From assembly GCA_951406725.2 (NCBI GenBank), contig OX597838.1:42160001-42224000 (forward strand): 64,000 nt of DNA. Direction: 5' to 3'. Positions 57,938 through 63,625 of the stretch are shown one piece after another. The notes below the pieces were generated by a model, which worked only from the letters and a program-made list of their open reading frames with translations, made no database searches and was not told the DNA's origin. How positions within the stretch are numbered: position 1 is the first letter of the stretch; every line of letters begins with the position of its first letter. The position numbers were made by a program, and so were the translations under genes. The DNA comes from Octopus vulgaris. Taxonomy: Eukaryota.

Positions 57938-58197
57938 CCGCTAATTTTTGGATCACACACTTCATGTACGTTGATGGGCCGTCCCTGTTGATAACCGTAA
58001 CACATACCATTGCTGAAGCAGCAGTAAACGTCTGGAGCCATACCTTTTGAATTCAGGAGGGTCATGGATAAATACTCTAATTTGCGGTCAATAAGAAGCT
58101 CGGTGTTTTTCCCATAGAGGCGAACAAGGACCATGTCATTGTGTGAATCATTTTGGTAGCAACCCACCAACTGATTGGTAATTCCTTCACTGAAAAC
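57938..58197 (-). CDS. ETNK1: Ethanolamine kinase (ETNK1/2-like), first visible coding exon; the N-terminal exon was not found in the window
   Basis: VFSEGITNQLVGCY...VLVRLYGKNTELLIDRKLE...CFSNGMCYGY, typical ETNK N-lobe motifs; 260 bp, AG/GT bounded. Confidence 0.93.
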
Positions 58198-59376
58198 CTG
58201 CCAACACAACAAAAAAAAAAAATTAATTAATAATAATATACTAAAAACATACAATGCAATTCATAGATTAACATCACATGTGAGAGTCTGGTTAGGGAGT
58301 TTGCTTACCAACCACATGGTTTTGGGTTCAGTCCCATTGCATGGCACCTTGGGCAAATGTCTTCTACTACAGCTACAAGATGACCAAAGCTTAGTGAGTG
58401 GATTTGGTTGATGGAAACTGAAAGAAGCCTGTTGTATATGTGTGTGCATGCATGTGTGTGTGTGTGTGTGTGTGTGCATGCTTGCATGTGTGTGTGTATG
58501 TGTGTGTGTATGTGTATTTGTGTTTCTTTGTCTTGACATTGCATGATTCTTGTAAACGAGTGTCATTAATGTCCAATCTTCCACAAAAACATGTCTGGCC
58601 ATGAAGAAAACATAATGTGACAGGAAGGGGCATCGTGTCACAGAAAATCTGCCTAAGTAAGCTCCATCTAACCCATGCAAGCATGGAAAAGTGGATGTTA
58701 AAACAATGATGATGAAATGTCTAGCTGACATCAATGAGCAAGACCAAGGGTGAGCACATTTTTTGGCCGTGGACTGAATTGGAAATGCTTTTATGCCAGG
58801 CCGGGGTGAATAAAAATGAACAATAAACATGCACCAGCAGTTTGTTTGGTTATTTATTGTTGTACTTTTTAACTGTCACCTGTTGTAATAAAGGAATCAA
58901 TACAAATTTAGTGAGTTAACAAAAAACTAATGTCATATTTAACATGGCAAAGAGTTTATGGGTCAAGATGAATGATTGCAGTGATTGTGATATCAGACAG
59001 TGTGGGTTGCCTTCGTAGACATGTCGATATTTTCTGTCACCCTCTCCTTTCTTAGAATTGATTAAGCAATGCAAATCACATCACAACAACGTAAGAGACA
59101 TACCTGGCGCTTTGTTGCTCTGTTTGTTTAGGAAGGTGAATGCGTTGACTACCTTATAAACATGAGAAAGTTTTACCAAGTCAAGGAACCTCATGCTTAT
59201 ATATTTTTGGTTTTTGCATAAAACATTGATTTATTTATAGACATTGCAAAAATAAAACTTGTTTGAATTTGTTTCATTGTTCACCGTTTCCTCTTTATAA
59301 CTCTTTTATTGGTCACTTTTCTCTCTTTTCCAGTTTTGGTCTGTGAACTGCACATATATATATGCATATATATATA

Positions 59377-60880: not shown

Positions 60881-61406
60881 TTCTAACAAACTGTCATACT
60901 TTTGGGAGTCGATAAAATAAAAGACCAGCTGGGGACTAAAGTTGATGAAATTGACTACCCTGTCCCCTAAACAATTTCAGGCCTTGCACCTGTCACAGAA
61001 AGGATCATCATCATTATTTCAAGTCCCTTTTCCATGCTGGCAAAGGTTGAATAGGTTGACATGAACCAAGTCAGTTTCCATTCAGATTTACTGCTCCCCC
61101 ACACAAGTTACGACCATATTTGGTTTGTACGTTCCATTTTTAGTAGGTTTTTTTATCACAGGATTTCCTTCTTATTCTTAAACATTTTACAGAATGTACT
61201 CAGTGCACACACAAAGATACACACACAAAGATACACACACATGCATAAATATGATTACGATGATATATATATATATATATATATATATAAAGCAATAAAG
61301 ATTCAAGTTAATTTAAATGAATTTACTTGAATATGGTAGCTAACTTAGATGCACCAAAAAAAAACTATACTGTTTTAACAATACAATAATGTGGGGTGAT
61401 TATAAG

Positions 61407-61708
61407 CGAGAAAGAAGCAACAAGAATGGATAGGTTTTTAGTACAATCGTTTCATACAAGGACAGGCTTTATTAAAAGTTGCAAAATTACAGCATATAAA
61501 CGTGTCCTGTACTCATCAGCTAAAATACATGTGAGTTCTCTAGACATCCTATTGGTTGTCCAATAGGATGTCTAGAGAACTCACATGTATTTTAGCTGAT
61601 GAGTACAGGACACGTTTATATGCTGTAATTTTTGCAACTTTTAATAAAGCCTGTCCTTGTATGAAACGATTGTACTAAAAACCTATCCATTCTTGTTGCT
61701 TCTTTCTC

Positions 61709-61709
<1 letters not shown>
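61407..61709. repeat. Near-perfect 303-bp palindrome (149/150-bp arms, 4-nt loop), probably Penelope-derived
   Basis: 61407-61555 is the reverse complement of 61560-61709 apart from one T indel; (TA)n lies on both sides of the element. Confidence 0.95.
61590..61680 (+). ncRNA. Type I hammerhead ribozyme motif (mirror copy on the minus strand at about 61436-61525)
   Basis: Stem I TTTTAG/CTAAAA; CTGATGA 61596-61602; stem II GTACAGGACA/TGTCCTTGTAT; GAAA 61663-66; C-GATT-G; GUA cleavage triplet 61672-74. Confidence 0.75.
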
Positions 61710-61754
<45 letters not shown>

Positions 61755-61756
<2 letters not shown>

Positions 61757-62280
61757 AAATCAAAATCATTTCGATGACTGGCATCCGTGCAAGCAGGGTG
61801 CAAAGAGCACCATACGAGTGTGATCGTAGACAGAGCAGCTATTCAAGTATGATCGTTACCAGCGTCGCCTTACTGGCACTCATGCCTGTGCTAGTAGGGT
61901 GCCAAGAGCACCATCCGAGTGTGATCATTGCCAGAGCAGCCAACTGGCTTCCGTACCCGTGGCATGTAAAAGAGCACCATTCAAGCATGATTGTTACCAA
62001 CGTCGCTTCACTGGCACCTGTGCCGGTGGCACGTTTAAAAAAATTCGAGCAAGGTCCATTGCCAGTACTGCCTGACTGGCCGCCGTGCAGGTGGCACGTA
62101 AAAAGCACCCACTACACTCTCGGAGTGGTTGGCGTTAGGAAGGGCATCCAGCTGTAGAAACTCTGCCAGATCAAGACTGGAGCCTGGTGCAGCCCTCTGG
62201 TTCGCCAGCCCTCAGTCAAAATCGTCCAACCCATGCCAGCATGGAAAACGGACGTTAAACGATGATGATGATGATGATGA
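61755..62280 (+). mobile_element. Family A copy with internal tandem sub-repeats
   Basis: Repeated AGAGCACCAT..GAGTGTGATC units, the conserved core and a (GAT)n tail. Confidence 0.78.
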
Positions 62281-63625
62281 GTGTTTGTGGAACCATACAC
62301 ACACACACACTCACGTAATACATACATACTCCCTCGGGCGTTCAAAATCTCCCCTTCTCACCAATGAACCCACCATGCATCGGGTTGTACTGACGTTCGT
62401 GTTGCCTATAGCATTAACGAGCAACCTGACAACCTGTTAATGAGCAGATGGACTGAGGAGAGTCAATGACCCTCAAAGGTGTGACAGATGCATGTGCAAA
62501 TATGCAGCCAAATGCATTTAAATGCACCGAGTTGAAGGTTTGCTCTTATTTCAAGACTTTGGTGTTTGGAGTTGCCAGCATTCTTGTTTTTCTTTATTAT
62601 TTTTCTTTTGTGTCCGTTTCAGTCAACTGACTGTGGCCATGCTGGAGCATCACCTTTTAGTCAAAGAAATCGACCCCTGGACTTATTCTTTGTAAGCCTG
62701 GTGCTTATGCTATCAGTCTCTTCTGCCAAACTGCTAAGTTATGGAGACGTAAACACCAACATTGGTTGTCAAACAATGGCAAGGGGACAAACACATATAT
62801 ACACATAATTATATATATACGGCAGGCTTCTTTCAGTTTCCATCCACCAAATCCACTCACAAGGCTTTGGTTGGCCCAAAGCAATAGAAGATACTTGCCC
62901 AAGGTGCCACGCAGCAGGACTGAACTCAGAACCATGTGGTTGGGAAGCAAGCTTCTTACCACACAGCAACGCCTGTGCCTTGATTATTTTTCTTTTATTT
63001 TTTACTTGTTATCTGCTGCTTTTCAATTTAATGGTTCCAAACAGTCATGGACAAACTGCGGCCCATGGGACTCTCCGAATCGAACACCTAACAAAAAATT
63101 ACCTTTTGTTAGTAATGTGGCTTGCCTGGTGAGGATCCATATCTCATGCAGCCTACTTCTCATGAGAAGTTGCCTATGTCCGATGCAGAAAGTAGGACAG
63201 ATTTCATCTGAATGTTTGATGCACCAGTAATTTTTGTGCAGCATAATTTTTCTTTCTCTTTCCGCTGTAAGTCAATACTTGAACTTCTTGGATTCCACTG
63301 TGACATTCGGAGCATCATGACCAAAGCAATATCCACCACTACCTTCGCAGTTTCCCTACTTGCAAGGACACACATAGACAGGAGCAGTCATGGTTCACCT
63401 GTCATCCTTCGTTGTCGTACAGTCACTGCATGGCATGCGCAGACTTGTTCTTGCTAAACTAGTGTCTTGTCTTCAGTGACATGATGACCCATGACAAGGG
63501 GGACTTCATGAAGAGGGAAAGAAGAAGGGAGATACAAAAGTGGTAATACTCCACAGTGAAACAACAGCCTCTGTACAGATGAGTGATGCATGCATTTATG
63601 CAGTCATACATGCATATCTATGCAT

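Follow-up and report, generated by a model that had tools for sequence, protein, structure and literature searches.

The window analysed here, a stretch of 64,000 nucleotides of the Octopus vulgaris genome, carries seven exon pieces of the gene ETNK on its minus strand, as found by tblastn with an Argonauta ethanolamine kinase as query. Exon 1, with a GT donor, lies beyond the window end in the adjoining stretch of the contig (G000:C25:42227463-42227347), and intron 1, which runs from exon 2 to this exon, is 9,149 nt long. Within it, 3.1 kb away from exon 2, we found an insertion with a palindromic core (Table 1). The first-pass annotation of the window had placed the palindrome in a probable intron 1 and had reasoned that a minus-strand pre-mRNA would contain the antisense arm first, and the gene structure agrees with it on both points. 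A second gene of the choline/ethanolamine kinase family is present in the genome (G000:C11:10324669-10343139). To the right of the insertion lies a very high-copy SINE-like repeat (61780-62280), with an inverted partial copy at 61004-61049, 1.2 kb off, and 58293-58467 pairs with 62787-62958; both pairs could form further dsRNA stems in ETNK intron 1.

Table 1 Features of the insertion and its surroundings in the window.
Feature	Position	Strand	Remark
ETNK coding exon 2	57938..58197	-	AG/GT flanked
(TA)n target tract, left	61263..61289	.	
Whole insertion	61290..61711	.	Two 5'-truncated copies, head to head, of the pLTR 3' end of a putative Hydra-clade Penelope-like element, one copy tailed; site is (TA)n; compared with the full-length natural copy L034
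117-bp tail, left arm only	61290..61406	-	In full elements runs from the pLTR toward the ORF start
Left arm, 149 bp	61407..61555	-	Sense in the ETNK pre-mRNA
Type I hammerhead motif, ETNK strand	61436..61525	-	Predicted cut after 61442
AATAAA, ETNK strand, left arm	61468..61473	-	
Centre	61556..61559	.	3 extra templated left-arm bases and 1 non-templated base
Right arm, 150 bp, no tail	61560..61709	+	Antisense in the ETNK pre-mRNA, made first
Type I hammerhead motif	61590..61680	+	Cut predicted after 61674; self-complementary stem III hexamer at 61667-61672, of dimer type
AATAAA, 3' side of stem-loop II	61643..61648	+	26 nt ahead of the ribozyme cut site; putative poly(A) function
U/GU-rich tract downstream of the right-arm AATAAA	61690-61701		
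(TA)n target tract, right	61712..61754	.	

The two arms, which a 4-nt centre separates, differ by no substitution and by a single indel in a T run (T4 versus T5), and the near-perfect palindrome described by the first-pass annotation is therefore real. The extent it gave, 61407-61709, is correct for the arms but falls short of the insertion, as the left arm runs on through its tail to 61290. On the map of the parent element the left arm, tail included, covers -152 to about +117 and the right arm, which has no tail, -149 to -1, the two truncation points being 3 nt apart on the element. The centre junction shows a 1-nt insert and no overlap, and the insertion is bordered by (TA)n at either end. 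The arm recurs at dispersed sites: all 40 scored candidates, out of 1,131, were identical to it at 100%; an identity of 100% between the right arm and at least 40 other genomic places supports the young age that had been proposed.

Each arm holds one type I hammerhead motif: when the two strands of the 64-kb window were scanned with a type I descriptor, exactly two matches came out, one per arm. Both have a 6-bp stem I and a 7-bp stem II, and their GTA triplets end at 61674 on the plus and at 61442 on the minus strand. In the right arm, stem I (61590-61595/61675-61680) encloses CTGATGA (61596-61602), stem II, GAAA (61663-61666) and the triplet, which is the layout first written for it. The term "canonical", used by the first-pass annotation, is apt in part: the 10.1-11.1 pair is G.U, stem III is 2 bp long, and the core boxes are separated by 60 nt. 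Rfam hammerhead models produced no match at the gathering score and none among the 15 matches up to E=10, likely on account of the long stem-loop II; miRNA matches returned by Rfam at this position merely reflect the palindrome.

We assembled a set of genomic copies from loci picked solely by RT similarity, and a core-only pattern detected 24 distinct core matches among the 50 loci examined of 150 scored (none in the reversed loci). Pairing was seen in 124 of 144 stem I cells (mean 98 and maximum 112 in shuffles) and in 145 of 168 stem II cells (mean 116, maximum 134), above all 2,000 partner shuffles and with base changes on both sides of the stems; as the 24 sequences are related, these figures are to be read as support and not as a probability. 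The covariation of stems I and II, whose lack would have spoken against the first-pass annotation, is present. A family at 64% RT identity retains the hammerhead motif with different stems. The CUGANGA/GAAA core with an NUH triplet is present, the triplet being GTA in 45 of 46 distinct sequences, and the 10.1-11.1 pair is G-C in 20 and G.U in 19 of the 46, the window's family belonging to the latter. The stem III hexamer takes five different forms, fully self-complementary in 45/46 sequences of this set, which is partly constrained by the search pattern, and in 23/24 of the RT-selected set; such changing hexamers fit the dimer model put forward in the part of PMC4209133 that we could consult. 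Remoter long-stem-II hammerheads with a palindromic stem III were seen beside or within insertions at four loci (L075:3506-3584, L107:7373-7462, L187:2707-2806 and L190:1973-2062). Taken as a whole, the motif in the window is very likely a true hammerhead.

A stem III of 2 bp with a palindromic loop implies that this hammerhead likely needs a dimer. The active monomer fold has a predicted ensemble share of about 2e-5 (-8.4 kcal/mol; ViennaRNA, which omits tertiary contacts of the core), and the stem III segment is predicted to pair with itself over 8 bp. MFE z-scores of the arm are about 0 and unremarkable, so that folding energy alone lends the motif no support. According to the available passages of two studies, single metazoan PLE (Penelope-like element) hammerhead motifs did not cut as monomers (PMC4209133), and cleavage by a PLE hammerhead was seen solely with protein, the motif being dispensable for insertion (PMC11167929). 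Cleavage by a single arm is doubtful on these grounds, and the self-silencing by duplex formation that had been suggested for this locus would consequently be redundant in all probability. The ends of insertions were also inspected for traces of ribozyme cleavage, an idea that was then rejected, as 1 copy ends at the cut site against 1,088 motif hits; of two further candidates for such ends, L031 proved to be a local duplication and L160 to have a rearranged end.

The arm corresponds to the 3' end of the pLTR of an element with an RT/GIY-YIG-type ORF, in line with the Penelope origin first suggested. A subfamily 24-mer has 148 exact matches in the assembly, a family 24-mer 1,088 and a wider core pattern 2,845, with 0 matches for the reversed control of each search; the check on copy number and on linkage to Penelope ORFs that the first-pass annotation had proposed is answered by the 1,088 matches and by uninterrupted ORFs of this type. 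In the natural long copy L034, an inverted truncated copy with its tail is followed by a 1.2-kb pLTR, the ORF, a second pLTR and (TA)n. Locus L053 has an uninterrupted ORF of 949 aa with the motifs RWK, DKT, YRDD, CxCx5C, YIG, CxxC and CxH (RWK, DKT and the last three Cys motifs in the forms IRWK, ADKTG, CKCRIKSKC, CQLC and CVH), and on inspection no Cys pair (CCHH) was found inside its GIY-YIG core. The ORF aligns with six relatives across the RT and GIY-YIG motifs, with a conserved YRDD core and aligned VIY..YIG..R..H..E..N motifs. PF01541 was matched by the relative P0008 alone (E 0.004, under the cut-off), which also matches RVT_1 under the cut-off, and the parent ORF itself had no Pfam match and no PDB sequence match. 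The top three fold matches of its structure model (mean pLDDT 61.7) were TERT, with a best E of 3.6e-8, which together with the YRDD core points to a single ORF with a telomerase-like RT.

This ORF contains two long Asn-rich inserts missing in the six relatives (L053:805-3651, L101 and L103), and Asn-rich ORF inserts have been described for Adineta Penelope (passages of PMC3846280). A sister family has open frames as long as 1,091 aa, and a 1,043-aa ORF of another mobile element, with the same C-terminus at both loci, lies near family copies at L046:1350-4478 and L048:1637-3556. Judging by its motifs, and not by a tree, we assign the parent to the Hydra clade, for which RWK, DKT, CxCx5C, CxxC, CxH and (TA)n targeting are given as diagnostic in the portion of PMC8557442 available to us. 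The elements show the preference for (TA)n and have pLTRs from partial tandems, an inverted 5'-truncated copy and a one-sided tail, of about 120 bp instead of the 30-40 bp usual in PLEs. The unit is 4.6 kb long because of the Asn-rich inserts and the 1.2-kb pLTR and hence departs from the trait "short (<3 kb)", which the same portion of PMC8557442 words as holding "generally" and which we did not take as defining. Words of the family also occur in public runs under four organism codes, pointing either to related species that share it or to the labels.

In order to describe the insertions of this family, we traced the first 100 of the 1,088 matches (C1 and the start of C2) to all the insertions that contain them, 60 in number. 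Of these, 39 are simple and two-armed and 17 are single-armed; the other 4 (L133, L139, L160 and L167/168) are complex and were dropped. Each of the 39 two-armed insertions has exactly one tailed and one tail-less arm, and one tail was also seen in 19/19 two-armed insertions among 20 sister-family loci picked by eye. By BLAST ends, the truncation points of the two arms lie no more than 10 nt apart in 14 of the 39, against 1.1 expected (0 of 20,000 shuffles), and by exact ends they lie within 20 nt in 13/37, against 1.7 expected; the set of 37 omits L130 and L134, and the ends of the asymmetric L123, L144 and L154 are mis-extended in it, which leaves their class unchanged. The excess of symmetry is weaker in the sister families, where the unpaired centre is <=20 nt in 2/19 and <=32 nt in 4/19. 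The tailed arm is the longer one in 14/39 insertions and the tail-less arm in 11/39. Arms within one insertion differ by about 0.2% and from other loci by 1.2-1.5% (median), which indicates that both derive from one template. Truncation points spread from about -65 to full length over the 60 insertions, and no tandem array of the retrozyme kind was found among them.

Single loci of the family show further peculiarities. The largest near-perfect palindrome, L159 (G000:C1:224763700-224770000), has arms of 2.6 kb. At L006:868-1656 the inverted piece is the tail alone (+13 to +127) and abuts a -667 arm, a non-overlapping layout like that of L1 twin priming. In L215 (G000:C1:8157000-8158900) the 17-nt centre is taken up by a short (TTAGGG)n stretch of telomere type, which looks as though the junction had been patched by telomerase or telomeric RNA. 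An untemplated G often precedes (TA)n at tail-less 3' junctions (26/52 contexts, for example L006, L007, L012 and L028), in sister families too (L109, L185), and TG at 61710-61711 of the window may be a CpG-decayed form of it. This G could be due to RT slippage or be a base of the target site; its inheritance from a G-ending master is a poor fit, as it is also found where the tailed arm holds ORF sequence.

A mechanism by which such insertions could arise is twin priming, which we hold to be the probable one, if with moderate confidence. The endonuclease of the element would nick both strands of the (TA)n target, each strand would prime RT on the same element RNA at one of two internal starts spaced by about 120 nt, and the resulting cDNAs would be joined head to head, stops at nearly the same place giving a near-perfect hairpin. 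Priming from both strands at two internal starts yields all classes of arm length and agrees with the Poseidon element of Anolis (PAc), for which, in the part of PMC11167929 available, both target strands were cut and extended in vitro and two RT starts bound the tail. By itself, twin priming leaves the frequent joint stopping of both cDNAs unexplained, a shared 5' end of the RNA being our guess. A search for twin priming in Penelope elements, in literature outside subscription journals, brought up no paper on PLE mechanism as judged by title or abstract. Self-priming, in which one cDNA or an antisense transcript of the same element folds back, is a possible but less likely origin of the inverted arm. 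It has been inferred for rotifer Penelope from palindromes at inverted junctions (in passages of PMC3846280), and it would suit the near identity of the arms and the several symmetric centres that lie on micro-palindromes or overlaps of 2-6 nt. However, the window centre has its 1-nt insert instead of an overlap, and fold-back of one cDNA predicts that the tailed arm is at least as long as the other, since a cDNA that lacks the tail cannot yield a longer tail-less arm in this way. The tail-less arm is the longer one not only in the 11/39 mentioned above but also in 7 of the 14 near-symmetric insertions.

Two other readings concern the palindrome as such. The first-pass annotation had taken it for a young non-autonomous unit spreading in palindromic form and regulating its own ribozyme by antisense pairing. 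The palindrome, its motifs and the predicted duplex on which that proposal was built are all real, and retrozymes are published non-autonomous PLE derivatives (bioRxiv 10.64898/2026.07.22.740005, in part); the centre junction, however, occurs once in the whole assembly, which largely refutes the proposal, and the scattered truncation points and the lack of a retrozyme-like tandem array speak against it as well, making it highly improbable. The unique centre, together with an arm that matches the pLTR 3' end of a coding element, identifies a truncated copy and not an amplifying family, and a unit amplified with fixed ends, retrozyme or MITE-like, was not what we found. A fold-back read or an assembly artefact could also create a palindrome, and among contigs from four public sequencing runs, which do contain the family, none bridges the window insertion, short-read contigs breaking at (TA)n. 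Nevertheless, the flanks show no mirror symmetry, a tail is present on one side only and the arms differ by an indel, ETNK exons 1 and 2 are collinear across the insertion, and the one-tail geometry recurs throughout both sets of other insertions, so we give the artefact hardly any credence. We conclude that the locus is, with a high degree of probability, a recent one-off, doubly 5'-truncated insertion of a young Hydra-clade PLE in (TA)n of ETNK intron 1, likely twin-primed, whose hammerheads are passengers predicted to be silent.

A second feature of the family concerns stem-loop II, the 3' side of which contains AATAAA or ATTAAA 17-26 nt before the cut site in 52/57 distinct hammerheads (shuffled mean 4.5, maximum 12). 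The 57 sequences make up about four families, one of which switches between the two hexamers, and a U/GU-rich tract follows the hexamer in the representative sequences inspected. In its layout the hexamer looks like a poly(A) signal. No report of a hexamer inside a PLE hammerhead was found in literature listings and the available passages of PMC6765202.

In the ETNK pre-mRNA, the full hairpin has a predicted energy of -262 kcal/mol and of -78 kcal/mol already once 190 of its 303 nt are made, in keeping with the very stable duplex anticipated by the first-pass annotation. As the antisense arm is made first, the hairpin would close before the ribozyme core is finished, and the lone sense copy would lack a dimer partner, which on these models would very probably leave the intron uncut; the hammerhead is very likely inactive in this intron. 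Processing of the hairpin by ADAR or Dicer is plausible on general grounds (PMC5625713). In the passages available of that study, octopus shows high hyper-editing, a lizard Penelope is heavily edited and so is a palindromic repeat of frog, and young repeats are the main editing targets (PMC9989829, in part), so that editing of the hairpin is expected but not special. By analogy with other young inverted repeats, we think it rather likely that ADAR edits the hairpin and that it has no selected role. That it alters ETNK expression, be it through ribozyme cleavage, intronic polyadenylation at AATAAA or ADAR/Dicer, seems improbable to us. The sense arm does bear the ribozyme core, AATAAA and the U/GU tract, and 100 of the 303 nt of the duplex strand are A, in an animal with the high hyper-editing just cited; but the three elements are all predicted to be base-paired, and the insertion is very young and distant from exon 2.

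The literature already describes hammerheads in PLEs, inverted 5' copies, tails and a Hydra family of octopus, and the locus itself is of little importance, being one of hundreds of truncated copies among which related insertions share its layout. What makes the family useful is its youth and its many copies in a contiguous assembly, and its counts (the one-tail rule, the symmetric junctions and the embedded hexamer) are the part that merits a second look. The origin of the inverted 5' copies of PLEs is stated as open in the portion of PMC8557442 covered, and the steps after priming were left unvalidated in that of PMC11167929. With the one-tail rule and the surplus of symmetric junctions, twin priming and self-priming can be tested against each other directly on genomic data, and the conserved poly(A)-like hexamer next to the cut site suggests a role for PLE hammerheads that could be put to the test. 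A joint reading, which we regard as tentative, would combine obligate twin priming in octopus Hydra PLEs, hairpins feeding hyper-editing, and polyadenylation set against dimeric self-cleavage at one RNA end. If it were true, two fixed starts on one RNA would give every two-armed copy exactly one tail, and about a third of two-armed copies would be near-perfect hairpins of 85 bp to 2.6 kb. The window family alone would then supply some 150 perfect dsRNA hairpins (extrapolated from 100 of the 1,088 matches), which could feed octopus hyper-editing. Likewise, the long-stem-II hammerhead would carry the poly(A) signal of the element 17-26 nt ahead of the ribozyme cut, and polyadenylation and dimeric self-cleavage would vie for the same RNA end.

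In L1 twin priming, two target strands prime on one RNA, with a 5' inversion as the result; L1 inversions are not known to duplicate the 3' end, whereas both arms of the octopus insertions span the same 3' region. Among the closest known systems are the Hydra-clade EN+ PLEs as presented in parts of PMC8557442 (Hydra-1_Obim of Octopus bimaculoides and Penelope-13_HM), with which the octopus element shares RWK, DKT, CxCx5C, CxxC/CxH, putative C-terminal GIY-YIG motifs, the (TA)n target and a type I hammerhead near the 3' end; for Penelope-13_HM, the supplement lists a 5'-truncated inverted copy and one hammerhead per strand. Most published Hydra elements are <3 kb, without the length of the Asn-rich octopus unit, and the hammerheads listed have loops II of about 3-10 nt, compared with 44-65 nt between core boxes here, the hammerhead sequence being unlike that of Hydra-1_Obim. 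The minimal/dimeric type I hammerheads of metazoan PLEs (passages of PMC4209133) likewise have a long helix II, a short palindromic helix III and covarying families, and pairs on opposite strands 100-700 bp apart had been noted in Schistosoma. They differ in a G-C pair at 10.1-11.1 that is called highly conserved, where the window's family has G.U, and their stem-loop II is far shorter than the one described here, with its conserved A(A/T)TAAA.

Non-LTR retrozymes (bioRxiv 10.64898/2026.07.22.740005; PMC7229834, both in part) resemble the window locus in being non-coding and PLE-derived and in carrying a type I hammerhead, but they are direct tandem repeats amplified as units, whereas the locus is a single inverted truncation product. 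PAc shares with the octopus element an AT-rich target, cutting and extension of both strands, two internal RT starts bounding the tail and a hammerhead dispensable for insertion; it belongs to another clade, and inverted copies and symmetric truncation are not treated in the portion of PMC11167929 covered. The Penelope of Adineta vaga, as far as the passages of PMC3846280 go, has head-to-head inverted pLTRs, palindromic junctions, a one-sided tail and Asn-rich ORF inserts, as does the octopus family. It is present in few copies and was explained by self-priming, whereas a count over the many young copies of the octopus family favours two primed cDNAs.
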